Assembly: GCA_017555595.1 (NCBI GenBank)
Contig: JAFZGC010000067.1
Location: 514 to 64,513, forward strand
Direction of reading: 5' to 3'
DNA from: Paludibacteraceae bacterium
GTDB taxonomy: Bacteria > Bacteroidota > Bacteroidia > Bacteroidales > Paludibacteraceae
Length of the DNA stretch: 64,000 nucleotides
Of this stretch, positions 5,020-62,884 are shown piece by piece. The notes beneath the pieces were generated by a model. It ran no database searches. It was not told where the DNA came from and worked only from the letters and a program-made list of their open reading frames with translations. The first letter of the stretch is position 1. Every line of letters begins with the position of its first letter. The position numbers and the translations under genes were made by a program.

Positions 5020-7596
5020 ATGAGAAAAATTTTCTTATTTTTGTTCGCAGCTGTGCTGTCAATCGGTACAGCTATGGCGGAATTGGTGACCATCACCGAA
5101 AATCAGTGTACTCTCGAGTACGAAGTGGATGGTAGGGCGTTGTATATTACTGGCGACTACCTCGGAGATCCATTTTCATTAACTCTTTTAAGTGAGAATG
5201 ACATTGACTTGACCGCAGAATCATTTGTGTGCGATGTGCAATCATTGAATATCGCAAATTACAGTAAGTATGCTGATAGAGGTACCGCTACAGTAAAAGT
5301 TTACCCTTATGGCATTGGTATATCAGCAACAGGACTGTATGACTTCGTTGGTGATGACCCAAACACATACGACTTGGTCGATCTTTGGGCAGAACCTAAA
5401 GAAGCTGCCGGAGGTGATGATGTTTCGTATGATGCAGAGTTTACAGTAGATATGACAGGTTTGGAAGCTACAATGGAGCTTACATTTGCGGCTTCAGGAC
5501 AATCAGATGATACGCAATTGGGTGGCCCATTGGGAACTGTAGTAACATATCTAGAATGCGATTGGGAAGCGGTAGATGGCGCTTTACCTGTTCTTCCTGG
5601 CAATAGTTCCTTAACTTTGGCAGATCATGGTCTTCTTGGTGAAGTGTTGGCTGGCTCTGTTGTTCCTGTGCTGGATGCAAGCGAGACCGCATTTGTATCT
5701 GCAACTGCTGTTGTATATGTTTATTTTGAAGATATGGGTACTTTCAAATTCACATTAAACATGACAGCAGGTAGTTCAGAAGAACCAGGAGAACCAGGAG
5801 AATCTGCTACAGTTTCTGTACAAGTATGGAATGCTACATTGAGTCAACAATATGGCACATTGATGCTAGATGGTAGCATGAATGGTGTAGCTGTGCATGC
5901 AGAAGTTCCAGAATTTGAATTTGTGCCTGATACTTGGGACAGGTTTGACTATAGCAATGTCATGGTTGAGGTAGGCACATGGGGAGAGTCAGACTATGTA
6001 GGTATGGCTTACGGCGATGCTACTGTGGAGTTGGATCAAAATACAGTAACAATAACTGGTACAATGACGACAAGTGGTGGAACTACATTTGTTGCGTATA
6101 TCCAAGGCTCATTGCAACCTGCTGACCCAATGGCCTCTACAACCCTTACCATGGAAGGTTTGACAAAATCGGAAGTTAATCGTGGTATGGGTCGTGGTTT
6201 CACACAATTGGCAGATGCTAGCGATAATTCAATTGAGATTTACAACCTCCAAGAGGATGGAACATTTGCATACGGCGATTACCTAAAAGTTACTGCAAAC
6301 ATTAATGAAGTAAGTTTAGAGGGTTCTGGATCTTGGCAAGAAGTGGACGGAACAGAAACCCTAATTGCTACTCTTTATGACGATTATTATACTGAGGTTT
6401 ACTACGTAACAGCCACTGTTGCAGGCGCAAAAACCATAACCCTCACTTGTAGCGATGCGGTTTATTATAAGAACGAATACAACGAGACTATCTTTACAGG
6501 AGTAACCGCAAATGATGAGAGCGTAAAACTTACAATCGCGAATCTTAAAACGGGCATCAACACCGCAGATGCAGGACGTCCTATTTTATGCGAATATGGT
6601 CCTTGGTACGATCCAACATACCTACAAGCAGAGTCTGTTACAGTAACAGCCATTGATCTTACAACTTACACCGTAACAGGTGAATTTACTGACGGTATTA
6701 ACACCTATAATGTTACTATTACGGCAACCCCAATGCCAATTATAGATATGACTATTACTGACGCTGTTTACGAGAAAGATGAATATGGAAATATCTACAT
6801 CAAAGCCGAGTGGAATGGAACCACAGTAAACTTCGAATTACCTGTATGGGCTGGTAACGAAGGCGAGTATTCAGATGTATATTTCACAACAGGAAATGGC
6901 ATGGGCGATGATGACTTTAGTGCTACTGCAGGATACGCTTTATTAGAAACAACAACCACCGAATTTACTCTCACCGGTACATTTACGCACGATTGGGAAC
7001 AAAAGATGTACAACGCAACTATCTCTGGAACTTTCCCTGTTTTCACCCGCACAGTAACTTCTGGTAACTACGGTACAATCTGCTTGCCATTTGGTTCAAC
7101 CGAGTTCTCTGGTGCTACTTTCTATGAAGTAGTAGGTAAAGAGACTGGTAAGGTATACTTGGGCAGCGTAAGCACATTGGTTGCTGGTGTTCCTTATATC
7201 TTCCAAGCTTCTGCAAACGAGTTGACTGTTTACAGCAACGGAACAACTACTGACGAAGCTGGAAGCAAGAATGGTTTGATTGGTAATTTCACCGATGAAA
7301 CAGTTGTTCCTGCAGGACACTATATTCTCTACAGCAACGCATTCATCCCAGCTGATGGTACAACAAACAAAGTGAACGCTAACCGTGCATACCTTAATAT
7401 GAATGCAATAACTGGTGGCAAACCACAACAAGTTCCAGGTCGTCGCTACATCGGTATGGATGTTCAAGACGAGAACGAGGCTACTGGTGTTGACAATATC
7501 ACAACAGGTGCTGAGGTAGTTAAGACTATCGAGAATGGTCAACTCATCATCATCCGTGAAAATGTTAAGTACAACGCACAAGGACAAAAATTATAA
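5020..7596 (+). CDS. Secreted repeat protein of unknown function (858 aa) with a conserved C-terminal domain and tail ...ENGQLIIIRENVKYNAQGQKL
   Basis: Signal peptide MRKIFLFLFAAVLSIGTAMA. T/G/V-rich beta-type modules. The C-terminal ~180 aa align with the C-terminus of the 2658-aa protein. Confidence 0.85.
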   Translation: MRKIFLFLFAAVLSIGTAMAELVTITENQCTLEYEVDGRALYITGDYLGDPFSLTLLSENDIDLTAESFVCDVQSLNIANYSKYADRGTATVKVYPYGIGISATGLYDFVGDDPNTYDLVDLWAEPKEAAGGDDVSYDAEFTVDMTGLEATMELTFAASGQSDDTQLGGPLGTVVTYLECDWEAVDGALPVLPGNSSLTLADHGLLGEVLAGSVVPVLDASETAFVSATAVVYVYFEDMGTFKFTLNMTAGSSEEPGEPGESATVSVQVWNATLSQQYGTLMLDGSMNGVAVHAEVPEFEFVPDTWDRFDYSNVMVEVGTWGESDYVGMAYGDATVELDQNTVTITGTMTTSGGTTFVAYIQGSLQPADPMASTTLTMEGLTKSEVNRGMGRGFTQLADASDNSIEIYNLQEDGTFAYGDYLKVTANINEVSLEGSGSWQEVDGTETLIATLYDDYYTEVYYVTATVAGAKTITLTCSDAVYYKNEYNETIFTGVTANDESVKLTIANLKTGINTADAGRPILCEYGPWYDPTYLQAESVTVTAIDLTTYTVTGEFTDGINTYNVTITATPMPIIDMTITDAVYEKDEYGNIYIKAEWNGTTVNFELPVWAGNEGEYSDVYFTTGNGMGDDDFSATAGYALLETTTTEFTLTGTFTHDWEQKMYNATISGTFPVFTRTVTSGNYGTICLPFGSTEFSGATFYEVVGKETGKVYLGSVSTLVAGVPYIFQASANELTVYSNGTTTDEAGSKNGLIGNFTDETVVPAGHYILYSNAFIPADGTTNKVNANRAYLNMNAITGGKPQQVPGRRYIGMDVQDENEATGVDNITTGAEVVKTIENGQLIIIRENVKYNAQGQKL

Positions 7597-7603
7597 ATAA
7601 TTT

Positions 7604-7668
7604 AGACCGCCTTACGGCTGAAAGAAGTCAGACCATTACATTGTCAGACCGCCCTACGGGCTGAAAGA
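7604..7668 (+). repeat. Two copies of a 22-23 bp unit agaccgcc(t/c)tacgg(g)ctgaaaga in the spacer before the mini-ORF
   Basis: The copies are at 7604-7625 and 7646-7668. They are followed by three copies of GACAGYGAARCG, starting at 7679, 7704 and 7727. Confidence 0.8.
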
Positions 7669-7760
7669 CCCAAGAATCTGACAGCGAACGCAGTGAGTGT
7701 TCTGACAGTGAAACGATCTGACATCCGACAGCGAAGCGGTCACAAAACAAAGTTTTGATT

Positions 7761-7901
7761 ATGAAAAAGAATTATATCGCGCCTCAAACAGAGGCAATTC
7801 AACTTCTCGGTGAGAATGCAATCATGGCTGGTAGCCCTACTGTAGGAGGTGGTAAATTCATCTCAACAGGTGCTGCACAAAGTGATGTTTACGGAGATTA
7901 A
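7761..7901 (+). CDS. Mini-ORF, 46 aa, paralogous to the mini-ORF at 29181-29315
   Basis: Encodes MKKNYIAPQTEAIQLLGENAIMAGSPTVGGGKFISTGAAQSDVYGD. 17 of the first 26 residues are identical to the second copy. Both share the same position 3' of a giant gene, and a terminator follows. Confidence 0.55.
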   Translation: MKKNYIAPQTEAIQLLGENAIMAGSPTVGGGKFISTGAAQSDVYGD

Positions 7902-7967
7902 TAGATAACTTATACAGTTCCTTTTTGTATCGGCACAAGATACCAACAGGTAACTCACAATCAACAG

Positions 7968-7994
7968 AAAACCGCCTCCCAGGCGGTTTTCTTG
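7968..7994 (+). terminator. Rho-independent terminator after the mini-ORF
   Basis: aaaaccgcct-ccc-aggcggttttcttg: a GC-rich stem followed by a T-tract. Confidence 0.8.
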
Positions 7995-11846: not shown

Positions 11847-11933
11847 TGGTGCGCAGGATGAGACTCGAACTCACACGGTCTTGCGACCACTACCCCCTCA
11901 AAGTAGCGTGTATACCAATTTCACCACCTGCGC
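11847..11933 (-). tRNA. tRNA-Leu (anticodon GAG), long variable arm, CCA encoded
   Basis: GCGCAGG...CTACT-TTGAGGG-GGTAG...GTGAGTTCGAGTCTCATCCTGCGCACCA. A cloverleaf can be drawn by hand. Confidence 0.85.
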
Positions 11934-11937
11934 ATTG

Positions 11938-12019
11938 TGCCCAAAACAGGACTCGAACCTGCACGTCTCTCAACACTCGCACCTGAAACGAGCGCGTCTA
12001 CCAATTCCGCCATTTGGGC
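11938..12019 (-). tRNA. tRNA-Leu (anticodon CAG)
   Basis: GCCCAAATGGCGGAATTGGTAGACGCG-CTCGT-TTCAGGT-GCGAG...GGTTCGAGTCC...TTTGGGCA. Confidence 0.85.
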
Positions 12020-12079
12020 GTTACGTCAGCGACCTTGAATCGACTGCCGATTCTATTCCGTATTCAAAGACCTTTTTAG

Positions 12080-12104
12080 AAAAAAAGCAGGAACCATGTC
12101 CTGC
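12080..12104 (-). terminator. Hairpin plus T7 directly after tRNA-Gly
   Basis: The minus strand reads gcagga-catggt-tcctgc followed by ttttttt. Confidence 0.6.
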
Positions 12105-12116
12105 TCATCTCTATAG

Positions 12117-12189
12117 AGCGGCAAACGAGACTCGAACTCGCGACCCCAACCTTGGCAAGGGTGTGCTCTACCAACTGAGCTATTGCCGC
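12117..12189 (-). tRNA. tRNA-Gly (anticodon GCC)
   Basis: GCGGCAATAGCTCAGTTGGTAGAGCACACCCTTGCCAAGGTTGGGGTCGCGAGTTCGAGTCTCGTTTGCCGCT. Confidence 0.9.
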
Positions 12190-13795: not shown

Positions 13796-16700
13796 TTATT
13801 CTACAACAACACCCAGCACGTTGTAAGTCTTGCCCTCATGGATAATGATGAGTTGACTGTTTCGGAGGAGTTTATAGGTAGTAGCCGTGGGCGTCTGGAT
13901 CTCACCTACTGATGTTGGTGCTTGGTTATAGACACAACCATAATCATCGAAATCTGGGTGGTCGGTGGTATAGAGGCAGTTATCATCGCGCCAAGCGCAG
14001 AGCATGACGGAAGTTTGTGTTTCGCTACTAGCACTTCTGGCTGGGGCAGCGTGAACATCACTTGTTCGCTTAGCAGCATTGTGCACGATGCCATCCACAG
14101 AGCCGAGACCTGCTAACCACACTTTTTGTGCGTTTTCTACAGAGGAGGTTTCATCAGGGAAGACAACTTCCAGCATCATGCGGCAAGCGCCATTCTCGAG
14201 GGTGTCTTTACCTGTCACCACATGGGTGTAGGTGGTTTCTTGAGGATAGTTGTTGATACCCGCAAAGATCTCTATGGTGTCGCCAGGCTCGGCGGTAAAG
14301 TCATAGAGGACATACTCTACTCCATCACGGAGGAAATACACGCGGTTGTCTTCATCTTCGCCGAAATGCAATGCACCCACAAAAGATTTGGTGATAGCCG
14401 TATCTTTGGTAGATTGGCGAGCGAGTTGGTAGAAGGTTTTACCCTTGGTAACAATGGAGTCGTTCTCTAAGGTGTAACTAAAGGTCTCTGCACGCAGGAT
14501 AGTTGGGGTACCGTCCATCTCTTTGGTTTCTACTTCTAACATATTCCATTGAGTAGGCGTTGGTCTGCCACCAATCTTGCCGTTCTTGGCATTATCTTTT
14601 TTAGGACCGCTATTGTAATCGCATAGGCACTCTGCACCCAAGCGTTCCATCTCGGTGTCGTCCATTTGGTAGAGGAGTTTGTTGTTCTTGCTTACGCAAA
14701 CGAGGTGGGTGCCTGTGTGACATGGTACAACGACTTCTTGAATCAATCCGAAGAAGTTACCTCCACGGCGACCACCATACATACCAATACCCTCTACATA
14801 CTCCATTCCGTTATTGAATGTCCATTTCTTGTATTCCTTTCCGTCAAGGAGTGTGACATTAGAAATATCTGTAACGACAAATGTGTCAGCAGGGTATATT
14901 GTTCCGTCTTCGAAGTCTTTGTTGTAATCTACCACATCTAAGTTATATGGTATCCAATCCATAGCATTGCGCGCATGGTAATAAATATACAACGCTGGCA
15001 GCGAGTCGCCTACTTCCAACGTGAAGTCATACAACACAAGGTCTTTATTAAGTAGTTGGCTATATATCAATATCTTATTATCTTCTTCACGCAGGAGATA
15101 ACCATCGCAAAGGATATAAGGTTTATTATTTTCAAAGAATATTTTGTCAAAAGTCTGTTTGTAGGTATTATTCGCAGAATTATCATCCTCTGTCTCTCCG
15201 CAATACTCATTGCAAACTGTTCGTTGCAAGCCTGACAGCATAGGGAAAAGATCTTCATCAACGGTTCCATCATTATTATAAACGCATCCCATGTTCTTAT
15301 AATCCGAGAAGTTAGTGGTATATACACATTCATCATCGCGATATGCGCAAAGCATAATTATCGCGCCATCACCACCAACTCCTGGATTAGATGGATTAAA
15401 GATAATGCCATACGTAGAACCTAATCCTTCTATCCATGTTACAGGATGTTTTTCTTCAAAATATTCCCCAGCACCATTATCTATACGGATAACAACATCA
15501 GCTTGTATTTGTAACCTACCATCATCTAATGTCTCTTTGTCTGTGATAACATGGGTGTATGTCTTATGATAGTTATAAAATTCTAAACCAGCAAAGAGTT
15601 CTAACGTATCTCCTAGTTCTGCACCAAAATCGTAAAGCAGATATTCAGTTTCGTCAAATGCGTAGTAAAAATACACTTGCTTGTCTTCTGTAAAGCGTAA
15701 TTCACCAATGAGATTAGTTGATTCCACATCAGGTTTACTGGATGAGCACATAAGAGGGATATACTCTTGACCATCTCTATTGACAGTATTATTACTCAAC
15801 CAAAATATGCTCGTACGCGCCGCTACCAACGGGTCTTGCGGACCTTGATATCCGTGCGAAAGGATATTCCATTGGTTGCACCAAGTGTCTGACCATTTCT
15901 TTTCTACATCACATAGGCACTCTGCGCCAAGGCGTTCCATTTCGGCGTCGTCCATTTGGTAGAGGAGTTTGCCGTTACGGCTGGCGCATACTAATTGTTC
16001 ACCCAAATAACATGCAGGAAGAGGATATGGATTAGCAATATTTATATAATCTCCTCCAAAACTACCAATTCCTTCTACATAATAGTTGCCATTTTCCCAA
16101 TCATTGCCAAATAGCCATCTTTTATATTCTTTTCCGTCTAACAATGTGATTGTTGATACTTCAGTGACATGTTTCGATCCTAATGGCTCTTTCTTAATTA
16201 TAAACTCATCTGTTGCTACATCATAATCTTCGTATGCTATGTAATCCACTACCGCTGCGTATTCAAGTTCGGGGAAAGAATAGATGTCTATTCCGAGATT
16301 TTGCAAAGTGTCGCCAACTTCTAAAGTATAATCATATAAGACCAAGTCTTTTTCGTATGGAAAACTATAAATTAGAACTTTCGAATCTTCTTCACGCAAA
16401 AACACACCGCCACATTTAAGATATTGTTTGCCATTAATTTCCGTTATCTCTTTGGGTGAAAATAAATAACTCTTGTTTTCTTCGCATCCATCAAACCATT
16501 CATCGCAACTTGTTCGCTGCAAGCCCCAAAGCGTTGGAAAGAGGTCTTCGGGACTTTGTTCTGCATCATCACCACAACCGTACTCTTCGTATAAAGGACC
16601 TGTATATTTTAATTCATCGCCTTTGTAGGCGCAGAGCAAATACTCTGAACCACCACCATCCATTTCTACGTAATGATTGATGCCATTAAGAAATCCATTT

Positions 16701-17260
16701 ATATCACCGACTCCTTCTATCCATTGGGTTTGACGATAGAACTCTCTAAAATCATCAGGGTGATTATGTACTTCCAGAGTGATAGTCGCAGGGCATCCTA
16801 CACATGCGTATTGTTCAATGCCTGTCACGGTGCATTTGTATGTTTTGATTTCAGATGTATAGTTGTTGATACCAGCAAATACTTCTAACTCATCACCTTC
16901 TTGGACATTGAAATCATACAATAAGTATTCGGCGTTATCGTAATAGATATACACTTTTCTATCATCAGTAAAGCGAACTGCTGCCACATATCGAGGTGCA
17001 TCAAGAGCATCGTTGATAGCTTTGCTAACAACAGCAGTATAGGTGTGCTCACCTATGACGGTATCTTTCGCCAATTGATAACGATATGTTTCTTCATGTG
17101 GTGGATATACACTGCCATTTTCCACAAATACATTCCATGTATCGCACCACTGGGATTGGTAGGAAGTATTATCATACGCGAAGGTTGACACACCTGCCAT
17201 GAGGGCGAGGGTAAGAGCAAGGAGTTTGCTGTGGAAAGAGGTAATCGTTTTCATACGCAT
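13796..17260 (-). CDS. Secreted Cys-rich repeat protein (about 1154 aa from MRMKTITSF), module order A-B-A-B-A, tail ...NSQLIIIHEGKTYNVLGVVVE
   Basis: Signal peptide MRMKTITSFHSKLLALTLALMAGVSTFA. The start was trimmed because the -7 box at 17304-17311 lies inside the ORF-track extension. Strong internal repeats are present. Confidence 0.85.
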   Translation of the reverse strand: MRMKTITSFHSKLLALTLALMAGVSTFAYDNTSYQSQWCDTWNVFVENGSVYPPHEETYRYQLAKDTVIGEHTYTAVVSKAINDALDAPRYVAAVRFTDDRKVYIYYDNAEYLLYDFNVQEGDELEVFAGINNYTSEIKTYKCTVTGIEQYACVGCPATITLEVHNHPDDFREFYRQTQWIEGVGDINGFLNGINHYVEMDGGGSEYLLCAYKGDELKYTGPLYEEYGCGDDAEQSPEDLFPTLWGLQRTSCDEWFDGCEENKSYLFSPKEITEINGKQYLKCGGVFLREEDSKVLIYSFPYEKDLVLYDYTLEVGDTLQNLGIDIYSFPELEYAAVVDYIAYEDYDVATDEFIIKKEPLGSKHVTEVSTITLLDGKEYKRWLFGNDWENGNYYVEGIGSFGGDYINIANPYPLPACYLGEQLVCASRNGKLLYQMDDAEMERLGAECLCDVEKKWSDTWCNQWNILSHGYQGPQDPLVAARTSIFWLSNNTVNRDGQEYIPLMCSSSKPDVESTNLIGELRFTEDKQVYFYYAFDETEYLLYDFGAELGDTLELFAGLEFYNYHKTYTHVITDKETLDDGRLQIQADVVIRIDNGAGEYFEEKHPVTWIEGLGSTYGIIFNPSNPGVGGDGAIIMLCAYRDDECVYTTNFSDYKNMGCVYNNDGTVDEDLFPMLSGLQRTVCNEYCGETEDDNSANNTYKQTFDKIFFENNKPYILCDGYLLREEDNKILIYSQLLNKDLVLYDFTLEVGDSLPALYIYYHARNAMDWIPYNLDVVDYNKDFEDGTIYPADTFVVTDISNVTLLDGKEYKKWTFNNGMEYVEGIGMYGGRRGGNFFGLIQEVVVPCHTGTHLVCVSKNNKLLYQMDDTEMERLGAECLCDYNSGPKKDNAKNGKIGGRPTPTQWNMLEVETKEMDGTPTILRAETFSYTLENDSIVTKGKTFYQLARQSTKDTAITKSFVGALHFGEDEDNRVYFLRDGVEYVLYDFTAEPGDTIEIFAGINNYPQETTYTHVVTGKDTLENGACRMMLEVVFPDETSSVENAQKVWLAGLGSVDGIVHNAAKRTSDVHAAPARSASSETQTSVMLCAWRDDNCLYTTDHPDFDDYGCVYNQAPTSVGEIQTPTATTYKLLRNSQLIIIHEGKTYNVLGVVVE
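14615..17170 (-). repeat. Intragenic tandem duplication, period about 1.29 kb (about 429 aa)
   Basis: Near-identical DNA around 14620-14680 and 15905-15970 encodes LLYQMDDAEMERLGAECLCD in both copies. The flanking protein modules align. Confidence 0.8.
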
Positions 17261-17303
17261 TATTTTAGTTGTTATACATTTTTGCTGATGCTGAATTTTG
17301 CTG

Positions 17304-17311
17304 CAAAGGTA
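17304..17311 (-). promoter_or_regulatory. -7 box TACCTTTG upstream of the 1154-aa gene
   Basis: caaaggta on the plus strand, 44 nt upstream of the ATG at 17260. Confidence 0.65.
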
Positions 17312-17458
17312 CTGCTTTTTCTGAAACGCTGCAATAGCGTGGGGCATTTGTACTGATAGCCAAAATGTATAGTGTTTATATTCTGTGGGTTATATTAAAA
17401 ATGTACAGATTGCTATTTGCTATAAGGGACAAAATAATCGGCTAATGCGAAATGATTC

Positions 17459-22071: not shown

Positions 22072-22159
22072 CGGAGAGAGGGGGATTCGAACCCCCGAAA
22101 CCCTTTTGGAGTTTACACGCTTTCCAGGCGTGCCTCTTCAACCACTCGAGCATCTCTCC
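22072..22159 (-). tRNA. tRNA-Ser (anticodon GGA)
   Basis: GGAGAGATGCTCGAGTGGTTGAAGAGGCACGCCTGGAAAGCGTG...long variable arm...GGGGGTTCGAATCCCCCTCTCTCCG. Confidence 0.9.
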
Positions 22160-28278: not shown

Positions 28279-28363
28279 GGAGAGATGGCAGAGTGGTCGA
28301 TTGCGGCGGTCTTGAAAACCGTTGAGCTGAGAGGCTCCGGGGGTTCGAATCCCTCTCTCTCCG
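28279..28363 (+). tRNA. tRNA-Ser (anticodon TGA)
   Basis: GGAGAGATGGCAGAGTGGTCGATTGCGGCGGTCTTGAAAACCGTTG...GGGGGTTCGAATCCCTCTCTCTCCG. Confidence 0.9.
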
Positions 28364-29089: not shown

Positions 29090-29135
29090 CACTACAAACA
29101 CCAACAACCACCCTTGCCATACGCAAAGGTGGTTG
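29090..29135 (-). terminator. Terminator after the second mini-ORF
   Basis: A 13-bp stem, caaccacccttgc (29105-29117) paired with gcaaaggtggttg (29123-29135, one G-U pair). On the minus strand it is followed by ttggtgtttgt. Confidence 0.65.
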
Positions 29136-29180: not shown

Positions 29181-29315
29181 TTAGTCTGGTTGACCAGGAG
29201 TTCCCGTTCCATCATATAAGTTAAGCATCGTCGTTGGAGGACTACCAGCCATAATAGCGTTAGTACTTAAGAGCAGAACTGCTTTTGTCTCGGGTGTTTG
29301 ATATATCTTTTTCAT
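29181..29315 (-). CDS. Mini-ORF, 44 aa, paralogous to the mini-ORF at 7761-7901
   Basis: Encodes MKKIYQTPETKAVLLLSTNAIMAGSPPTTMLNLYDGTGTPGQPD. In-frame upstream ATGs at 29321 and 29324 are also possible starts. It begins 15-24 nt after the stop of the 2658-aa gene. Confidence 0.55.
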   Translation of the reverse strand: MKKIYQTPETKAVLLLSTNAIMAGSPPTTMLNLYDGTGTPGQPD

Positions 29316-29339
29316 ATTCATCATTGTTTATAATGTTTA

Positions 29340-32300
29340 TTATTCCATTCGTTGTCCTTGCATGTTATACATTTCTTCTCCACGGATAATAATTAGCTGT
29401 CCGTCTTTTAGAACCTTTCTTACTTGGTTGGCAGGTTGCGTTTCTACCATTGGGATAGAAGTAGCGGCATTATCTTGGAATACTACACGAGCTCGAATTG
29501 GCAGTGGTGAAGCAGACTTGAAGTAAGCACGAAGACCAAGAATCGTACGAGGATATGTTCCTGCGCAATACAACGCATTATTTGACAGGAAGTATTCATC
29601 AGACTGATTCAATGTACCACCTGCATCTAATACAGGTACCATTGTTACAGTACCAGAGGTAACAGGTTTCAAAGACAAATCAATCTCTACACCTTCCATA
29701 GTGAAACCATCTTCTGCATCGTATCCACTGGCAGCGGTTTTAAGGATGTATGGCGTACCTGCTGTGATAGTGCTGACTGGTCTGAATTGCAAGTGAACTT
29801 CTTCTGCATTATATTCAACTACATTGTCCAACGCATATACAATAGCATTGCCGAATACATTGCGAATTTGTGTTTCATTCATATCAAATGGCAATGTCAG
29901 TGTCAAATACTTGTTCGCTTCGAAGTTGCGTTTAACCGTTGCTGTTACTACCTCACCGTCATAATTTTCAAGAGCAGTAGTGTTGTCTGCATTTTCGTCA
30001 ACGGTCACAGAAGACTCCAACGCAACATCAAATGTATAAATAGTTGCATCTGCTACAAGTGTGATTAGAAGATTTGTACCATCTACTTCCACAGCAGTTG
30101 CCGCAGCTGTTGCTGCTTGTGGCGTGGTGATATTGCGCGTCTCTAATTCTTGTGCTGTTGCAAGACCATTAGTGATATCAATAATTTTCACACCTGCTAC
30201 ATTTTCGCCGTCTGCATATGGAGCCACCATCAAGTGTTTGCCTAAAACAGTGAGGTAAGTAGCACCATTGAATTTCTTGCCGAGAGTATTATCAGCAATA
30301 TTAGCATTCACAATAGGGTCTTGCCCGTAAGTTTGTGGATTAGTAAACTCTGATGGCTCCATTAACTCTGCATCAATAATCCAGTTTTCTGTAGCTAGTG
30401 GAGATGCATTAAGTTGGAACTTCACGCCATGAGTAGTCTCGTTGTAAACAGCTGCATCAACTCCTGCACTAGCTCCTTTAAACTTCTTACCTATATAATA
30501 ATAATAAGGAAGTGATACCGCACCATCAGAAGTATCAATGTACTTTCCATCTATTATAGAGAAGTGCGACATACGAACACCACGGTGCGTGTTATGAAGC
30601 CCCGTAACAAGAATGTTGGCATTAGTAGAAGTTCCTGTAACGGCCATTGTGTAACCTTGATCTGAGGTAGCAGAGTTGCTTGAAGCACTAGACTGGAACC
30701 AAATAGAAGGATTTGCAGTAAGATTATCCCAAATATAGAATGTTGCTAAGTTAGAACCGCCAAATGTTGTTTGAACATAGTTACAAGCCACCAACTTGCC
30801 GTCCTCTGTCGCAGCAATATCAGAGATTGAGAGATAACCTGCCGCAGCAGCCTCTACACCCACTTGTGATATTTCTGCTTCTAACTCACCAGCCACTACT
30901 TTATAGAGGTGTGGAGTGCCATTTGCTTCGTGTGTGAGAACTACGGTGCTTTCGCCAATTTGAACAGCGCGTTTCACAACACCTTCCATTGCAAGTGGCT
31001 TCAATTCGAAGTTGGCAGTAACAGTTATATCACCTTCTACAACGAGCGCCAATGGATTGTCTGCAACAGTAGTTGTTCCATAAGTCCAGTTTACAAAACG
31101 ATAGTTCTCATTAGCAGTTGCTGCCAGTGTTGCCGTTTCGCCAGTCTTGTATTCACCACCACCTGCTACAGTACCCATCGCATTGTCATTAGCCTCTACA
31201 GTTACTGTATATCTTGCTTCTTTCATGATTATTTGTGACTCAGGAGCAGGAACGGTGCAAGTGTTGTTGTTGGTAGGAAGAACATACTTGTAGAAGCGCT
31301 CTGTGCCAGAGTGTACTACATATAAGTCACCCGCATAGTCGAAGGCAAGACCATCAAGTTCATTCCTTCCAAGATTTGGAGTTTGGCATATTTTAGAAAT
31401 TGATGGTACACCATCAGCAGCATATGTCACTTGGAATACAGAAGCACATGCTTGTGAATGTACAGCCAATATGTCTCGTTGCTTATCATATGCAATTGCT
31501 CCACGATAGTTTGCTCCAGCGAACCAATCAGAATATTCTTTATCCGCTTCGACTTTGAAATCGATTTTATTTTCAGCCACATTCACATGGAATAATGTAC
31601 CAGCTGCCGTTCCCCAACGATTCTGTGCAATCCAAAGACCACCATGACCATCAGAAGCCATAGCAATTTCTTGATCATAGAACAAGTTTCCGCCATTTGA
31701 TGTCAACTCTTTATAAGTACCATCAGTCTTTATCTGATATATGTTTCCATTTGGAGCACCAGATGTAGAAACATTAGCTACTACATACAAATTGCCTTCA
31801 TCGTCAAAGCATAGTGCATTTACTTTTTGAATTTCTGAAATATGCTTTGTCAGATTGATAGCTTCACCAGCTAAATTCTCTCTGCTTACTGCATATGCTC
31901 CACCATTCGTGGTTGTATTATTGCAGAATGCAATATCTCCATTCGCTGGATTAATTGTAATACGCTTAAAGACTTGTCGGTTTGCACCTATTGTATATGG
32001 CAATTGGGGTTTGATACCTGTGTTAGCAGGGGCATTCAACTCCTCTAATGCTTGATTATAGATAAATATACCTGCCTTTTGGGTATCAGAGCGATCCGCT
32101 ATGCCATCTGATGCACCATTATACGACTGTTGAATATAAATCTTTCCAAATTCATCGGAGTTAGGATCATTATCCACTACTACGCCCATCATGTTGTAGA
32201 AGTCGTAGATGTTGCGTGCTGGGTTAGTGATTTCTGCCATTTTAGCAATTGCTTCACCTGCGAGTTCTACTTCCCAGTAAATATCTTTGGTAGCAGCAGC

Positions 32301-35300
32301 AAATACGGTCTTTGCAATCGTAATTGTTTTTTCTTCAGCAGTAGTAGCAGTTGCGGTATGTGTACCAAAGTTCTGTATATTACCATCCTCATCCTTAAAG
32401 ATTAAGGTAGCAGTACCTGCGCTGGTTGTCTTGAAGGTGAATATGTAATTAGCTGGATCTGTATCTGCGTCTAACCTTAAATCATACGCCCACGCGCGTG
32501 GAACGGCAACTTTGAAGTTAGCTGTCAGATTTACATCCCCTGTTAATTCATCTATAGTACGAGTTTCCTCAGTTACGCCATCGCTCCAATCTACGAATAC
32601 ATAACCACCCTTAGCTGTTGCGGTCAGCGTCACCTCTGTACCCTCATAGTAAGAACCATCACCTGTAACAGTTCCCATAATGTTATCATAAGTCACATTG
32701 ATGGTGTATTTCGTTTTCTCTACGAAGTTAGCAACATAAGTAGCAGACTCTGTTACGACAAATGTATATGGATTCTCAGTAGATACCTCTGCATCATCTT
32801 TAGTCCAATTAACAAACTTGTAGTTTGTTGCAGCAACAGCGGTGATAGTAGCATTTTGATTTTCTTCGAATGTTCCGCCACCGTTAGCGATACCCCACTC
32901 ATTATTATTAGATGCTACACTTACGGTGTACACTGGAGTAAAGCGAACAGCCTCTAATGCAGGAGCTGCTACGGTGCAGATGTTGTCTGCGGTAGGCAAG
33001 GTGAACTTTTGGAATTTCTCTTTATGTGAGTTTACTACATACAAGTCACCTGCATAGTCAAATGCAAGACCGTCAATATTATTGCCTAAATCATCACTTG
33101 CGATAGTATATAATGGAGTCAATTCGATAGTAGGCTCGTAGCTTACAGTATAAAGCTCTACCTTACCATTTCTACCTTGTGCTAATATCTTACGCTCTAC
33201 ATCGTATGCCAACGCACCACGATTAGAACCTCCTTCAAAACCATGAGGTGTCTCCTGATTTACCCACCAATCAAATTCGCCAGTGCTTGTTACATGCACC
33301 AATTGATAATAATATGGAGCACCATCCATTTGACCACGGTTTTGGCTTATCCAAAGACCACCACGACCATCGGATGCCATTGTGATATATGCATTAATAA
33401 ATTTAGCTGAAATTTCAGTAATTCGAGTTGCTTCTCCATTTATTACCTTGTAAACAGCACCTGTGCTGCCAGCGAAATCCATTACATACAGTGTTCCTTC
33501 TGCGTCAAAGCAATGTGCTACCGAACGGGTCATATCTGCAACACCTGTGAGCAAGTTGGTAACATCACCAGTCATATCATCACGATTGATAGCAAACACT
33601 GCTGGTTTACCTGCAACTGCGTGACTAAATACCAAGTTACCTGTCTTAGGATGGATATTCAATCGTTGGAATGCAGAAGAAGACGAACCGATCTCTGTAT
33701 ATCCAGCTGGCATTGTAGGTTTAAGACCAACATTTGAAGGATTATTCAATTCCTCCAACGCTTGATTATAGATGAACACACCAGATTTTTGGTCATTTGA
33801 ACGAGTAGTTAGACCATTGTTACTTGTACTACTACTTGCATAAGAACGCTCATACGACTGTTGAATATAAATTTTACCAAAGTCTTTTGAGTCGGTATTA
33901 TTATCCACAACCACACCCATCATATTATAGAAGTCGTAGATGCCGCGGGTTTGGTCGGTTACTTCTGCAATAGCAGGGATAGGCTCACCGTCCATTGTAA
34001 TAGACCAAAAAGCATCCACACCTGCTGCAAAAGCGTTTTTAGCTATAGTGAACTTATTCTCTCCAACAAAAGCTGCTATTGTTTGTGATGCAGGTTGCGC
34101 CAACGCATTACCGTCCTTATCTTTGAAAGTGATGGTTGCTTGTCCATCGGCAGTCGCTTTGAAGGTGAATGTGTAGTTGTCGCCATCCTCACCTAATTTC
34201 ATATCGTATGCCCATGCGCGAGGGTGCGCCTCTGCAAACTCAGCGATATACTCTGCTGCACCAGTTACAGTAATAGTGCGTGGGTTGTCGGTGTTACCAT
34301 CATTCCATTGAGTGAAGTAGTAAGCGCTCTTAGCAACAGCTTTGAGCGTAACTTCTTCGCCTTCGTAATAGTCGCCACGACCTGTTACATAACCTTTGCT
34401 TGTATGGTCTGCGTGTGCATTGATGTTGTATTGCGCCAATGCCTCGAAGTTGGCTACGAGTTCTACATTCTCTGTTACAGGGAATGAATAGGTTGCCTCA
34501 GTCGAAACCTCTACACCATCTTTTGTCCAATTCACAAATTTGTAACCAGTGTTAGGAGTTGCTGTCAAAGTAGCAGTTGCTCCTTCTTGGTAAGCGCCTG
34601 CGCCTGTAACAGTTCCGTTTGTAGCACTTGCAGAAACGGTGTAGTTTTCTTTGAGAGATACTCTCCAAACAGCCGCTGCTACAGCTGGACAGAATTGATA
34701 GATATAAGCCGTCTTCTCATCTACAACTTGCACATTGAGCCAGTTAGCAGCACTATTTTTGCTTGTCTTATCTTTTGCAAAGAGTATTTCTTCAGAAACA
34801 AGTTTTCCGTCTGTAGCATTTATCAACTGCCATTCGCTGGAGTAGGCAGTTGTACCAGCGACATATGCCCAGAACTCTTTTCCTCCCAATTCAAATGTAC
34901 AGCCACCGATTGTAGAATTTTTCTTAGCTAAATAAGGATCTTCGGTAGATGTTAATGTGGTAATATTGTACTCAAATGCACCTGCATTTTTAGATTGTGT
35001 ATGGATATTACCATAAATATCCAATACCACATTGCTTTGCGAGGAAGCAGCATTAGTAATATTTGCTATAGTATCGTCTGTTACATCTTCAGCGGTTGCA
35101 GCACCATTTTTGATAAATAATCTTGATATCGTTTTTTGATCCTTACAGAAGAAATACACATACCCCCCCTCTGCACTATAGATATTTCCAGAAGCTGTTA
35201 GGAAATCGCAACGACCTGGTGCATCTAGTGTGAAACTTACAGGAGTTCCTGTAGTGCTACCATTTGGATAAATAATGATAGCATTGGGATTTGCAGCATA

Positions 35301-37316
35301 GAAAGTAGCATTAAACACAATCAAGTTACCTGCCTCATCAACAGCAATTTGCTGACCAATACCAGATGATGTCACATATTCTGTACCAGTATCATCTGCA
35401 TCAGAGTAGGTTAATATTTTCTTGTTACCAGCATCTTGCATATAAATTGTTCCATCCCAACCTACTGCTTGATAACCATTACTTGTAGATGTAGGAACAT
35501 GCGTATTCTCCCAAACTTTCTCAATGGTAAATGTAGGATCAGCTGCGTACTCTTTTACAAAGTAAGCAGAAACTGCTTTATTGTTATCCATTGTGAGAGT
35601 GATAGAAGGTGTAGTTGCTTTGTTGCTCCAAGCAAGCAGTTTGTAGCCAGGCTTTGGAGTAGCAGTCAGTGCCACCTCTGTACCATATTCATAAGAACCT
35701 GTAGCGACATCTATTGTACCTTTGTTCTCGTCATTAACAAACACGGTCAAGGTGTGTTTCTGCTTCTCAAAGTTCGCAGTAATAGTCATATCGCTATTTA
35801 CCGTAATGGTCAATGGGTTCTCATTAGAAGTAACATCACCTGTCCAATTGACAAAATCATAGTGTTCGTTAGCTACAGCAGTAAGTTCTGCGGAAGCGCC
35901 TGCTTCATAAGTACCCAAATTACCTGTAATTGAACCCTCGCCAACAACTTGTGTTGTCACCGTGTATAATGTTACATCCGCTTCTTTTTTCGTAACAATA
36001 TACGCCTTTTTAGCTGGTACTTCACAGGTATTGTTGTCTGTAGGTATTGTATATTGTATAAGACGCATAACATCACTATCTGTGCCACTATAAGACGCTC
36101 CGGTACAAGCAAGAAGGTTGCCAGCATAATCAAACGATAATGTACTAACATATCTATCAGAAATGGTATGCGTCTGTTTTAAAGCAAGCTCAGGTGTCTT
36201 ACCATCCCATACTACATCATATTCTAATATGCTTGTTGAACCACAAATAAATAACTTACTATTATCACTATTTACAGCGAGACCTGCACCTTCACACTTT
36301 CCCTTGTCTATTGAATATTGCAGAACTCCTGTATTATCAATGAACGCTAATTCTTTACGACCTGTTGTTCCATCATTTTGACTCACCCAAACACCTTTTT
36401 CTGTAGCAGCAAAGGCATTGTTGGTAGATGGATTTATACTAGCATAGGCGGTGCATATCCAGGTAGGTACATCGCTCCAAGTTTTTAATATACTACCATC
36501 TAGTTGACCAATATGATAGCAAACTGCTGATGAAGCATTTGTTCCATCTTCCATCATAGTATAAAGAACAGTATTTGCACCTGATCCATAAATACCCACA
36601 CCTGAAGTAGAACTACCTATTTCTTTGCCTGCAGCATTGGTAAAGAGACCATTAGAATCACGAGTACCATTATAGAACTGTGTACAAGTGGTTAGGTCTG
36701 ATGGATTTACCACCCAAATTCCAGATCTTCTAGCATCTGTATAATCTGCTAAAAACAAGGTACCGTCTGCAGCTACTGCGGGACGTGCGTATCCACTTTC
36801 ATCTCGACCGAGTGCATAGACCGTATTATTAATAAGCTGTAAATCAGGAGTGTAGACATATAAGCCACTCTTGCTATTAGAAGTTCGTCTATCTGTAACA
36901 TATACTCGACCAAAGTAATCAGATTCTGGGCTATTATCGATAGTAGCATGGCCGCGACCATATTTTTTGGCACCAGTGTACACTGCTTCGAATGCAGTAA
37001 CTTCTGCAGCTGATAACTCTACTGACCAATTGAGTTGCTGACCATCATTGCCTGGCAAACTATACTCAGCAATTTCAACTTCGTTTTTGCCCAATACAGG
37101 ATTTGTCAATGCTATCTCTCCTACCAACTCACTGGAGGTTGCATCATAAAATATGATCTTACCAGATGTAGGAGTTTCATTCGCTGTGAAAGAAAAGGTA
37201 TAAACCTTATCCACCAGCGCAGACGAAAGATCATAAGCGTATATTCGCTTAGGTTGTGCTGCAAACGATAACAAACTTATCGTCATCGCAACTAAAAATA
37301 GAGTAAGTTTTTTCAT
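29340..37316 (-). CDS. Giant secreted modular protein (2658 aa): beta-propeller-like modules alternating with seven InlB B-repeat/Listeria-Bacteroides-type repeats, a conserved C-terminal domain and tail ...KDGQLIIIRGEEMYNMQGQRME
   Basis: Signal peptide MKKLTLFLVAMTISLLSFA. Seven copies of the ...G.V.G.G.Y..G....L.A....GY.F..W... repeat are present. LAFDYAGDLYVV occurs twice and the variant LSFDYAGNLL once. Confidence 0.9.
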   Translation of the reverse strand: MKKLTLFLVAMTISLLSFAAQPKRIYAYDLSSALVDKVYTFSFTANETPTSGKIIFYDATSSELVGEIALTNPVLGKNEVEIAEYSLPGNDGQQLNWSVELSAAEVTAFEAVYTGAKKYGRGHATIDNSPESDYFGRVYVTDRRTSNSKSGLYVYTPDLQLINNTVYALGRDESGYARPAVAADGTLFLADYTDARRSGIWVVNPSDLTTCTQFYNGTRDSNGLFTNAAGKEIGSSTSGVGIYGSGANTVLYTMMEDGTNASSAVCYHIGQLDGSILKTWSDVPTWICTAYASINPSTNNAFAATEKGVWVSQNDGTTGRKELAFIDNTGVLQYSIDKGKCEGAGLAVNSDNSKLFICGSTSILEYDVVWDGKTPELALKQTHTISDRYVSTLSFDYAGNLLACTGASYSGTDSDVMRLIQYTIPTDNNTCEVPAKKAYIVTKKEADVTLYTVTTQVVGEGSITGNLGTYEAGASAELTAVANEHYDFVNWTGDVTSNENPLTITVNSDMTITANFEKQKHTLTVFVNDENKGTIDVATGSYEYGTEVALTATPKPGYKLLAWSNKATTPSITLTMDNNKAVSAYFVKEYAADPTFTIEKVWENTHVPTSTSNGYQAVGWDGTIYMQDAGNKKILTYSDADDTGTEYVTSSGIGQQIAVDEAGNLIVFNATFYAANPNAIIIYPNGSTTGTPVSFTLDAPGRCDFLTASGNIYSAEGGYVYFFCKDQKTISRLFIKNGAATAEDVTDDTIANITNAASSQSNVVLDIYGNIHTQSKNAGAFEYNITTLTSTEDPYLAKKNSTIGGCTFELGGKEFWAYVAGTTAYSSEWQLINATDGKLVSEEILFAKDKTSKNSAANWLNVQVVDEKTAYIYQFCPAVAAAVWRVSLKENYTVSASATNGTVTGAGAYQEGATATLTATPNTGYKFVNWTKDGVEVSTEATYSFPVTENVELVANFEALAQYNINAHADHTSKGYVTGRGDYYEGEEVTLKAVAKSAYYFTQWNDGNTDNPRTITVTGAAEYIAEFAEAHPRAWAYDMKLGEDGDNYTFTFKATADGQATITFKDKDGNALAQPASQTIAAFVGENKFTIAKNAFAAGVDAFWSITMDGEPIPAIAEVTDQTRGIYDFYNMMGVVVDNNTDSKDFGKIYIQQSYERSYASSSTSNNGLTTRSNDQKSGVFIYNQALEELNNPSNVGLKPTMPAGYTEIGSSSSAFQRLNIHPKTGNLVFSHAVAGKPAVFAINRDDMTGDVTNLLTGVADMTRSVAHCFDAEGTLYVMDFAGSTGAVYKVINGEATRITEISAKFINAYITMASDGRGGLWISQNRGQMDGAPYYYQLVHVTSTGEFDWWVNQETPHGFEGGSNRGALAYDVERKILAQGRNGKVELYTVSYEPTIELTPLYTIASDDLGNNIDGLAFDYAGDLYVVNSHKEKFQKFTLPTADNICTVAAPALEAVRFTPVYTVSVASNNNEWGIANGGGTFEENQNATITAVAATNYKFVNWTKDDAEVSTENPYTFVVTESATYVANFVEKTKYTINVTYDNIMGTVTGDGSYYEGTEVTLTATAKGGYVFVDWSDGVTEETRTIDELTGDVNLTANFKVAVPRAWAYDLRLDADTDPANYIFTFKTTSAGTATLIFKDEDGNIQNFGTHTATATTAEEKTITIAKTVFAAATKDIYWEVELAGEAIAKMAEITNPARNIYDFYNMMGVVVDNDPNSDEFGKIYIQQSYNGASDGIADRSDTQKAGIFIYNQALEELNAPANTGIKPQLPYTIGANRQVFKRITINPANGDIAFCNNTTTNGGAYAVSRENLAGEAINLTKHISEIQKVNALCFDDEGNLYVVANVSTSGAPNGNIYQIKTDGTYKELTSNGGNLFYDQEIAMASDGHGGLWIAQNRWGTAAGTLFHVNVAENKIDFKVEADKEYSDWFAGANYRGAIAYDKQRDILAVHSQACASVFQVTYAADGVPSISKICQTPNLGRNELDGLAFDYAGDLYVVHSGTERFYKYVLPTNNNTCTVPAPESQIIMKEARYTVTVEANDNAMGTVAGGGEYKTGETATLAATANENYRFVNWTYGTTTVADNPLALVVEGDITVTANFELKPLAMEGVVKRAVQIGESTVVLTHEANGTPHLYKVVAGELEAEISQVGVEAAAAGYLSISDIAATEDGKLVACNYVQTTFGGSNLATFYIWDNLTANPSIWFQSSASSNSATSDQGYTMAVTGTSTNANILVTGLHNTHRGVRMSHFSIIDGKYIDTSDGAVSLPYYYYIGKKFKGASAGVDAAVYNETTHGVKFQLNASPLATENWIIDAELMEPSEFTNPQTYGQDPIVNANIADNTLGKKFNGATYLTVLGKHLMVAPYADGENVAGVKIIDITNGLATAQELETRNITTPQAATAAATAVEVDGTNLLITLVADATIYTFDVALESSVTVDENADNTTALENYDGEVVTATVKRNFEANKYLTLTLPFDMNETQIRNVFGNAIVYALDNVVEYNAEEVHLQFRPVSTITAGTPYILKTAASGYDAEDGFTMEGVEIDLSLKPVTSGTVTMVPVLDAGGTLNQSDEYFLSNNALYCAGTYPRTILGLRAYFKSASPLPIRARVVFQDNAATSIPMVETQPANQVRKVLKDGQLIIIRGEEMYNMQGQRME
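31005..34226 (-). repeat. Intragenic tandem duplication of a ~570-aa module (period about 1720 nt), recognisable at DNA level
   Basis: HPRAWAYDMKL starts near 34226 and VPRAWAYDLRL near 32506. DNA at about 32130-32240 and 33860-33970 is clearly homologous (ttgaatataaat...cccatcat...tagaagtcgtagat). Confidence 0.85.
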
Positions 37317-62490: not shown

Positions 62491-62884
62491 ACTCAGTTGT
62501 AAGGAATATCTTTATCAACTCAATAGCTTTCTCCGCAGAGATGTAGTTTGCAGGCAACCCAATAATATTAGCATTGTTGTGCTGACGAGCAAGGCGAGCG
62601 AGAGATTCATCCCAACAAAGAGCAGCACGAATCCCCTGATGATGGTTGCAAGTCATGGTAATACCATTACCTGTAGAACAAATGGCAATACCCATATCAT
62701 TGACACCCTCTTCTACGGAAGTTGCCATAGGATGAGCGAAATCAGGATAGTCACAACTATCGGCAGAAGGGCAACCGTAATCTGTAACCAGTACGCCTTG
62801 CTCTTTGAGCCATGAAATAACGATTTTTTTGAGTGCAAAGCCTGCATGATCACAGGCAACGCCAAGTTTAAGAGTATTCATCAT
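62441..62884 (-). CDS. rpiB: Ribose-5-phosphate isomerase B
   Basis: 147 aa with GVACDHAGFALK and CSTGNGITMTCNHH. Confidence 0.9.
   Translation of the reverse strand: MMNTLKLGVACDHAGFALKKIVISWLKEQGVLVTDYGCPSADSCDYPDFAHPMATSVEEGVNDMGIAICSTGNGITMTCNHHQGIRAALCWDESLARLARQHNNANIIGLPANYISAEKAIELIKIFLTTEFEGGRHERRVNKIPCK

Follow-up and report, generated by a model that had tools for sequence, protein, structure and literature searches.

What is encoded by a 46-codon open reading frame (ORF) that lies directly 3' of a gene for a giant secreted protein, and what joins the two genes? The question is raised by a 64,000-nucleotide stretch of DNA from a Paludibacteraceae bacterium (GenBank assembly GCA_017555595.1, contig JAFZGC010000067.1, positions 514 to 64,513 of the forward strand), which is referred to here as the window and has a G+C content of 44%. 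Two such mini-ORFs had been described in the initial annotation, and translation recovered both at the quoted lengths of 46 aa (copy 1) and 44 aa (copy 2); a recount of their first 26 residues gave the same 17 identities. When either mini-peptide was compared with the whole window using tblastn, only the other copy was found above noise (E = 2e-7; next best 0.16). Copy 1 starts 164 nt 3' of the ORF at 5020-7596 and copy 2 starts 24 nt 3' of the ORF at 29340-37316, each on the same strand as its neighbour. Copy 1 had been called unannotated, which did not stand: an identical protein is already deposited as the 'hypothetical protein' IKY87_03485 of a Paludibacteraceae metagenome-assembled genome.

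The mini-ORF is a real protein-coding gene under purifying selection. The copy 1 query was searched in a collection of 5.8 billion proteins, and a family profile was searched in 1.84 billion representatives. The former search yielded 82 clusters at 90% identity, to which copy 2 added 17 further ones, and the copy 1 clusters contained proteins of 40-50 aa almost throughout, together with a few gene calls that had an upstream extension (up to 80 aa). The profile search yielded 73 clusters at 50% identity, each of 36-87 aa; none of the 73 was fused to a larger protein, and the longest members had upstream extensions. In all, at least 188 distinct proteins of about 40-65 residues were gathered from gut and rumen Bacteroidales. 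The ratio of nonsynonymous to synonymous substitution (dN/dS) in codons 2-25 of 33 distinct DNA copies was 0.16 in frame versus 0.83 and 2.8 in the shifted frames, and codons 13-25 of the same copies were synonymously saturated (proportion of synonymous differences, pS, 0.71) with their amino acids retained. Homologous mini-ORFs in other Bacteroidales and purifying selection on the frame, two of the properties by which the initial annotation had proposed to judge the gene, were both found. When both mini-proteins and distant members were scanned against Pfam and NCBIfam, no match was obtained; PDB sequence searches with family profiles were equally negative, and the small-protein family was not described in any text found by full-text literature searches; it is previously undescribed. 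A functional gene family has been overlooked by many gene callers and ORF tracks because of their length cut-offs.

The position of the mini-ORF is also nearly constant. At about 75 loci in Paludibacteraceae, Prevotella, and other Bacteroidales, it was located 13-176 nt 3' of a same-strand gene for a large signal-peptide protein. Upstream DNA is available for 31 distinct Paludibacteraceae modules, 30 of them taken from a one-genome-per-species scan and contig look-ups; in all 31, a spacer of 24-176 nt separates the mini-ORF from a preceding ORF of 660-2660 aa with the C-terminal domain (CTD) seen in the window. These giants end ..NGQLIIIR.G.K[YF]N.QG.. and share nothing beyond their last ~190 residues, which consist of a beta-domain and a tail. 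Modules outside Paludibacteraceae come from distant lineages of 45-58% G+C (L036, L038, L039, L042, L046, and L047), with one cluster member labelled Prevotella sp., and have short spacers of 19-86 nt. Three of three loci that were picked by the CTD alone (L049 twice and L050) also have the mini-ORF; in L050 it is an uncalled ORF (MKKMYKKPITE...) 20 nt after a divergent beta-domain. On a 1.4-kb contig (L037), a distant family member was found 3' of unrelated ORFs. Tandem modules, in pairs within 4-6 kb, are present in L039 (3609-3791 and 6001-6177) and L049 (903-1046 and 3977-4117). The cargo in L039 includes a GH3/CBM6/pectinesterase protein, so the cassette is joined both to enzymes that degrade polysaccharides and to adhesin-like proteins.

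The part of the giant to which the mini-ORF is tied was identified from genes that have the tail and nothing else of the CTD. When a profile of the C-terminal region was applied to the same loci, the proteins with the whole region all had a mini-ORF 3' of their genes, and none of 18 proteins that matched just a short terminal stretch of the profile had one; 16 of these 18 carry a ~25-40-aa tail at the C-terminal end. They include a protein of the window itself (13796-17347, minus strand). A metagenome scan with the tail alignment only gave 80 loci, selected independently of the mini-ORF. Automated scoring of this sample found the mini-ORF with 29 beta-domain genes and without it 9, as compared with 1 and 19 for tail-only genes (Fisher p = 1.3e-7); after the discordant loci had been read, the counts were 38/2 versus 0/18 (p = 4e-13). 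Seven of the nine automated misses hold divergent ORFs of a third class (MTKKIYNQPEVSVAQINTLSIICASG...DQW), and both apparent cases of a mini-ORF without the domain sit after a third-class beta-domain that the hidden Markov model (HMM) did not detect. The two true exceptions, L098 and L125, have the same beta-domain allele as L095, and different DNA stands in place of the mini-ORF; L095, in which the beta-domain gene is nearly identical, retains it (MKRTYQQPTTSAIEV...), and L098 and L125 look like natural deletions.

Because tail-only genes have no mini-ORF, the linked feature is, on these comparisons of gene content, the ~150-aa beta-domain in front of the tail and not the terminal GQLIIIR..YN.QGQ motif. 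The association of a beta-domain cargo gene with a micro-protein gene in a two-gene cassette is established. In the initial annotation, mini-ORFs were expected 3' of genes ending in GQLIIIR and YN.QGQ, which agrees with 31/31 Paludibacteraceae modules; genes with the tail alone have no mini-ORF. The module had also been drawn as giant gene, mini-ORF, and terminator. Its first two elements are conserved, and more broadly than had been seen; stem-loop/T-tract terminators do follow both window copies, but the terminator is not a constant part, as many loci have a further gene within about 100-300 nt. Read-through or frameshifting from the giant ORF into the mini-ORF was rejected, with several stops lying between the two and a spacer of 13-176 nt. 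The features of the two window modules are listed in Table 1.

Table 1. Coordinates of the two modules in the window and of their parts
Feature	Position	Strand	Description
Large secreted protein 1	5020..7596	+	858 aa; Sec-type signal peptide MRKIFLFLFAAVLSIGTAMA; passenger without Pfam match above threshold
Beta-domain of protein 1	7030..7470	+	about residues 671-817, boundaries approximate; motifs GTICLPF, AGxPYIF, ANRAYL
Linker and tail of protein 1	7471..7596	+	flexible linker ..EAT/GVDNI.., three-strand tail ..VKTIENGQLIIIRENVKYNAQGQKL, stop; candidate short secretion signal of the type IX system
Structured spacer between giant gene and mini-ORF	7597..7760	+	repeats AGACCGCCYTACGG x2, GGCTGAAAGA x2, ATCTGACAGCGAA x3; long imperfect hairpin
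Mini-ORF copy 1	7761..7901	+	ATG 7761 to TAA 7901, 46 aa; conserved N-terminal part MKKNYIAPQTEAIQLLGENAIMAGS, tail PTVGGGKFISTGAAQSDVYGD
In-ORF hairpin	7781..7795	+	GCCTC-AAACA-GAGGC; copy 1 codons 7-12, 5-bp stem
Intrinsic terminator after copy 1	7966..7992	+	bidirectional; stem-loop/T-tract, 12-bp stem
Intrinsic terminator after copy 2	29105..29135	-	stem-loop/T-tract, 13-bp stem
Mini-ORF copy 2	29181..29315	-	44 aa; 47 aa if started at upstream ATG 29324
Beta-domain and tail of protein 2	29343..29930	-	about residues 2463-2658, ends ..KDGQLIIIRGEEMYNMQGQRME; whole-ORF match to the CTD profile E = 1e-26
Large secreted protein 2	29340..37316	-	2658 aa; signal peptide, seven InlB B-repeat (Flg_new_2) domains, same beta-domain and tail

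Copy 2 is preceded by an in-frame ATG ATG AAT (29316-29324, minus strand), and some gene calls and database entries begin MMNMKK; the conserved start is MKK. An in-frame TTG is present upstream of copy 1 at 7755. The predicted tryptic peptides of copy 1 are NYIAPQTEAIQLLGENAIMAGSPTVGGGK and FISTGAAQSDVYGD. A sigma-70 promoter scan of both loci was uninformative, as it is in Bacteroidota.

The claim that each mini-ORF follows a giant signal-peptide gene, and that the two giants have a common CTD, was verified for both: proteins 1 and 2 are alike solely in their last ~200 aa (BLASTP 28% identity, E = 2e-8), and both end GQLIIIR..YN.QGQ. In L035, the module orthologous to that of copy 2 comes after a 2837-aa Flg_new_2 protein. 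The passengers of beta-domain cargo are otherwise unrelated and include GH3, pectinesterase, CBM6, F5/8 type C, and InlB repeats. An AlphaFold2 (AF2) model predicted the beta-domain to be all-beta with 12 strands (predicted local distance difference test, pLDDT, 90.6). The domain had no match among Pfam, NCBIfam, and PDB sequences; Foldseek comparison of the model with the PDB gave nothing better than E = 0.2, and the sole match in BFVD was a probable homologue on a contig labelled Siphoviridae. It lacks a database family, a solved structure, and, according to full-text literature searches, a published description. A catalytic role for the near-invariant Cys of GTICLPF was considered and rejected, that Cys being absent in L036, L038, L039b, L046, and L047. 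Many proteins of these genomes bear the ~25-40-aa tail, which is a widespread tag at the C-terminus. The tail-only protein of the window at 13796-17347 is the third large secreted protein of the stretch, with 1183 aa, no Pfam domain, the tail ..LLRNSQLIIIHEGKTYNVLGVVVE, no beta-domain, and no mini-ORF after it. In L004 (10250-11815), L021, L025, L029, L033, and L034, the gene right after the mini-ORF encodes another secreted tail-only protein, so cargo genes cluster.

By analogy with the short CTDs of Prevotella intermedia, the window giants are likely type IX secretion system (T9SS) cargo. According to the available part of Ye et al. 2025 (PMC11969387), those CTDs, 40-55 aa in length, fold as a three-stranded sheet and contain motifs B, D, and E; their linker bears a T/G-I cleavage motif, and they are cleaved and support C-terminal glycosylation by the type IX system. 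As in that description, the last ~36-50 residues of the giants are located at the extreme C-terminus of signal-peptide proteins and have a T/G(I/V/L) linker motif and a three-stranded sheet. Tails from outside Paludibacteraceae, which read ..TTGI...(V/I)YDL.G.RV.....KGIYI.NGKKV.VK., add Y..G.R, GxYI, and a final basic motif; B, D, and E motifs are clear in the tails of L036, L038, L039, L046, and L047. The window tail comprises 36 aa after the putative cleavage site EAT/GVDNI and resembles a short CTD in its position, signal peptide, linker motif, and three predicted strands; in the AF2 model of a 188-aa query, a linker with pLDDT below 50 precedes strands at 163-168, 171-176, and 179-181. A profile of the non-Paludibacteraceae tails matched the C-termini of PDB 4kca (endo-arabinanase) and 7jvi with E about 3e-8 and the gingipain RgpB CTD weakly (E 0.15-0.19), and T9SS and gliding genes are present on related contigs. 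The assignment is held at likely because the public CTD HMMs miss the tails and the motif order in the window is unclear. Neither the whole giants nor the isolated tails matched the type A models (TIGR04183 / PF18962), which cover a CTD of about 70-80 aa built as a seven-strand sandwich, even at E <= 10, the giants did not match the type B model TIGR04131, and, unlike the P. intermedia short CTDs covered by the available text, the Paludibacteraceae order (..NGQLIIIR..KYN.QGQKL) cannot be mapped confidently on motifs B, D, and E. The likeness covers the tail of the giants alone and neither the beta-domain nor the mini-ORF, and the accessible portion of PMC11969387 contains no mention of associated small ORFs. 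If the analogy with P. intermedia holds, cleavage at EAT/GVDNI would remove the secretion signal, and the mature protein would then have the beta-domain as its last folded domain, immediately at the glycolipid anchor.

The two halves of the mini-protein differ in conservation, as the initial annotation had claimed from a conserved N-terminal half and a variable tail. Over the 31 modules, mean identity was 80% in the N-terminal part, 31% in the tail, and 36% in the neighbouring beta-domain. The N-terminal 25 residues follow the pattern M-K-K-x-Y-x-x-P-x-(T/S)-E-x-(I/V)-x-L-x-x-E-x-x-(I/L)-(M/L)-A-G-S, of which just KKxYxxP and the hydrophobic pattern are retained across the deepest divergences, and in the AF2 prediction from the family alignment residues 8-24 form a helix (pLDDT about 80), with the tail disordered. 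The median tail is 20 aa long, and tails contain 24.5% Gly and carry a net charge of -2.2; Cys makes up 0.1% of their residues and occurs in 3 of 181. Many hold a short alternating hydrophobic stretch (FISTG, FDLMYG, LNLYDG), and their ends are class-specific (..YGD, ..GGGMR, ..PGQP(D/E), ..DQW, ..W..DEE).

In Mantel comparisons across the 31 modules, beta-domain distance was correlated with tail distance (r = 0.50, p <= 5e-4); its correlation with N-terminal distance was weak (r = 0.18). In nine genomes with two or three modules, N-terminal identity was 0.88 within versus 0.81 between genomes (permutation p = 0.001), and this likeness persists where the beta-domains of the paralogues are about 30% identical. 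Recent gene conversion was rejected as its source, since pS of the paralogous N-terminal parts is equal within and between genomes (0.68 versus 0.70); the corresponding proportion of nonsynonymous differences (pN) was 0.08 versus 0.15. The simplest reading of these patterns is that the N-terminal part serves as a constant handle that is adapted in each genome to one shared factor, and is joined to a variable tail that diversifies with the neighbouring domain.

On this basis, the mini-protein is tentatively interpreted as a cognate partner of the anchor-proximal beta-domain of its cargo, a proposal for which the chances are put just short of even. The tail would provide cognate specificity through contact or joint action with the adjacent beta-domain, and the handle read by the shared factor would be the N-terminal part. 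Judging from the short same-strand spacer, the two genes are probably co-transcribed, and the mini-protein would then be made from the transcript of the cargo just after the cargo C-terminus. It would act in the cytoplasm, because it has no signal peptide, and would accompany or retain the beta-domain up to the completion of Sec export; it could keep a fast-folding terminal domain competent for export or mark it for handling. An alternative version, nearly as likely, is that an unlinked machine exports the peptide, which would meet the beta-domain on the cell surface.

Several observations weigh against a cognate partner. The cargo is unfolded while it passes through the inner membrane and has its function outside the cell, so that, barring an unknown exporter, the cytoplasm is the one place where a mini-protein without a signal peptide could meet it. 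The absence of the mini-ORF from L098 and L125 indicates that it is not strictly essential. Amphipathicity of the predicted helix is weak (hydrophobic moment 0.19), and the co-variation of tail and beta-domain could arise merely from inheritance of the cassette as one unit.

Among the competing explanations, the one that survives best is also the one that had been offered first in the initial annotation, namely that the mini-ORFs are dispersed leader/core precursors similar to ribosomally synthesized and post-translationally modified peptides (RiPPs) or bacteriocins. The N-terminal 25 residues would then be a leader for one unlinked maturase or exporter per genome and the tail a released core, with adjacency to the beta-domain reflecting co-expression or an action of the released peptide on that domain at the cell surface. 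The better-conserved, leader-like half, the variable tail, and the presence of several copies per genome agree with this proposal; within-genome likeness of the N-terminal parts without gene conversion fits one shared reader, and Gly-rich tails are found in some microcins. The expected enzymes are missing from the surroundings. The initial annotation had noted no adjacent maturase, protease, or exporter gene, and this was upheld: the window is otherwise housekeeping (translation factors, tRNA-modification enzymes, gyrase, ExbBD, and similar) except for one orphan radical SAM/SPASM gene, and no maturase, peptidase, ABC exporter, or other conserved gene was found within +-10 kb of the module in about 30 loci.

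The radical SAM/SPASM gene (61468-62490, minus strand; 340 aa) scores below every curated NCBIfam cutoff and is a candidate only under the leader/core hypothesis. In favour of that role, L035 has a radical SAM/SPASM gene, likewise preceded by queG and rpiB-family genes, at a distance of about 9.5 kb from its orthologue of copy 2. Against it, the window gene is separated from copy 2 by 32 kb and from copy 1 by 54 kb and sits within a queG-rpiB operon, downstream of queG-like (62881-63669) and rpiB (62441-62884) genes.

The peptide itself also departs from the known precursor types, and the identities of signal peptide, Gly-Gly leader, lasso peptide, and lanthipeptide were each rejected, on hydrophobicity, position 24, core acids, and Cys content, respectively. 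No Sec or lipoprotein signal peptide, with an uninterrupted hydrophobic core of at least about 8 residues before an AxA site or lipobox Cys, was recognized in the mini-protein, in which Glu11 and Glu18 interrupt the segment and Cys is absent; the maximum 10-residue Kyte-Doolittle mean was 1.0 (copy 1) and 1.9 (copy 2), as compared with 3.2 and 2.5 for the signal peptides of the giants. The double-glycine motif of export by C39 peptidase-containing ABC transporters (PCAT), with Gly at -2 and Gly, Ala, or Ser at -1, was not found either: residue 24 is Val in 8 of the 32 sequences and in others Ala, Thr, or Ser, and, for cleavage after G24, positions -7 (Glu18) and -15 (Thr10) would be polar, unlike the hydrophobic residues of double-glycine leaders at -4, -7, -12, and -15. 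Neither window copy has the lasso-type Asp/Glu at core positions 7-9 after Ser25, and the scarcity of Cys in the tails excludes lanthi-, sacti-, ranthi-, and thiopeptide chemistry. Finally, near-absolute linkage to one protein domain is left unexplained by the leader/core model itself. Such precursors are therefore considered unlikely, and the partner role, which the initial annotation had named as well, is the better fit.

A different explanation places the function in the RNA: the small ORF would be translated in cis, and ribosome occupancy or a nascent-peptide effect, together with a hairpin and the spacer, would stabilize the very long cargo mRNA at its 3' end or process that end, and the peptide would have no function in trans. 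It draws on an additional nucleotide constraint at the start of the frame, where pS is 0.32 in codons 2-12 versus 0.71 in codons 13-25. The stem of the in-ORF hairpin is fixed at synonymous sites in about 30 loci (GCG in 30/30 Ala codons, CCT in 31/32, GAG in 31/31, and GCA in 32/32), and the third positions of its loop vary (CAA/CAG, ACA/ACT/ACG). Hairpins of different sequence occur at the same position in L036 (CGCAG-ACCGA-CTGCG) and L046, and none occurs in copy 2, L038, or L047. This hairpin may be an RNA-level signal that overlaps the coding sequence.

The spacer at 7597-7760 is likewise strongly structured (-71.3 kcal/mol, z = -4.1), and the conserved part of the peptide is about the length of the ribosomal exit tunnel, with the remainder variable. 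The spacer class of copy 1 closely recurs before the mini-ORFs of L012 and L007, which belong to other genomes, and is not universal; the first repeat unit of the copy 1 spacer, 24 nt long (7645-7668), is not found a second time in the window when up to 3 mismatches are allowed. The Paludibacteraceae spacers (L001-L034) fall into about five structured classes, common to different genomes and CTD classes, in one of which tandem TTACAC-type hexamers come after a GNRA-capped GC hairpin. A processing site, a partial terminator, or a promoter is possible for such spacers. Action in cis alone is nevertheless improbable. The class-specific tail motifs (..YGD, ..GGGMR, ..DQW) are kept and the frame is open and of similar length in all lineages; the hairpin and structured spacer are missing in several of them, copy 2 included. 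The downstream genes differ between loci, so that there is no conserved one to regulate, as a leader or arrest peptide of the SecM/MifM type would have, both window copies are followed by terminators, and a possible stall Pro at position 26, after Ser25, is present in just 12 of 32 sequences.

Less probable still is an immunity or antidote protein that neutralizes the C-terminal domain of its neighbour in the manner of polymorphic toxins. The gene order and the co-variation with the CTD do resemble the CdiA-CT/CdiI and Rhs/immunity pairs; however, the CTD is the common part of otherwise unrelated proteins of carbohydrate-active enzyme (CAZyme) and adhesin type, it has no toxin-family or fold match, its only near-invariant Cys is lost in other lineages, and a 45-aa helix with a disordered tail is unlike known immunity proteins. 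A chance ORF or decaying gene remnant, which the very short frame and the two natural loci without it might suggest, has a negligible probability and is refuted, as far as sequence analysis goes, by the conservation data: at least 188 distinct members were gathered, their lengths are consistent, the frame is under purifying selection, and synteny is near-perfect across lineages of 44 to 58% GC.

Other genes near the modules recur in few loci each and include DUF3990, AAA_14/DUF4143 ATPases, a polyvalent-protein kinase, the YhcG PDDEXK nuclease, and Bro-N. Genes of variable or defence-type islands flank L001, L014, L019, L026, and L032, and the cassettes may often be situated in plastic genome regions. 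An Rfam search of the window detected nothing but tRNAs. There are five tRNA genes, three of them clustered at 11850-12189 (minus strand) and the others at 22072-22159 (minus strand) and 28279-28363 (plus strand), the last some 800 nt past the terminator of copy 2.

Many Bacteroidota rely on type IX secretion for delivery of the adhesins, proteases, and multi-domain glycoside hydrolases with which they colonize hosts or degrade plant fibre. To our knowledge, the known T9SS accessory factors are either general parts of the machine or PorP/SprF partners of type B cargo. It is conceivable, with more doubt than attaches to the partner role as such, that the mini-proteins constitute an undescribed class of cargo-specific micro-proteins of gut and rumen Bacteroidales, in which a ~45-aa partner is provided for each T9SS cargo with this anchor-proximal beta-domain, its tail recognizes the beta-domain, its N-terminal handle plugs into a shared machine, and the pair controls export competence, surface anchoring, or assembly. 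If so, a new component of type IX secretion would be encoded cargo by cargo for giant adhesins and polysaccharide-degrading enzymes, and hundreds of cargo-linked micro-proteins would represent a new layer in the handling of very large surface proteins.

Three known systems can be compared with the cassette. In polymorphic toxins (CdiA-CT/CdiI, Rhs), a large secreted protein is followed by a small ORF that co-varies with its C-terminus. The cassette has the same large secreted-protein gene and co-varying small ORF 3' of it, but here the C-terminal domain is conserved, the N-terminal passengers vary, and there is no toxin signature. In prochlorosin-type RiPPs, many dispersed precursors with a near-identical leader and a hypervariable core are served by one processing enzyme. 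The mini-proteins are similar in their conserved N-terminal part, hypervariable C-terminal part, and dispersed copies with no maturase beside each; unlike prochlorosins, they have no Cys, no GG/GA motif, a 'leader' of 25 aa, copies tied to one protein domain, and no identified candidate maturase. The third system is represented by sprB-sprF, a type B cargo gene and its cognate partner gene. The accessory protein of the cassette differs from PorP/SprF, an outer-membrane beta-barrel, in that it has 40-65 aa and is soluble-looking with one predicted helix and no signal peptide; the secretion signal itself is not the linked module, which is instead the domain before it, and there is no sequence relationship. 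In gene organisation only, PorP/SprF next to type B cargo appears to be the nearest analogy: the available part of PMC9143113 describes T9SS cargo with a type B CTD and an adjacent PorP/SprF-like gene, and in both arrangements a subset of the cargo is set by a C-terminal module, a dedicated accessory gene is located directly 3', and several such pairs occur per genome.

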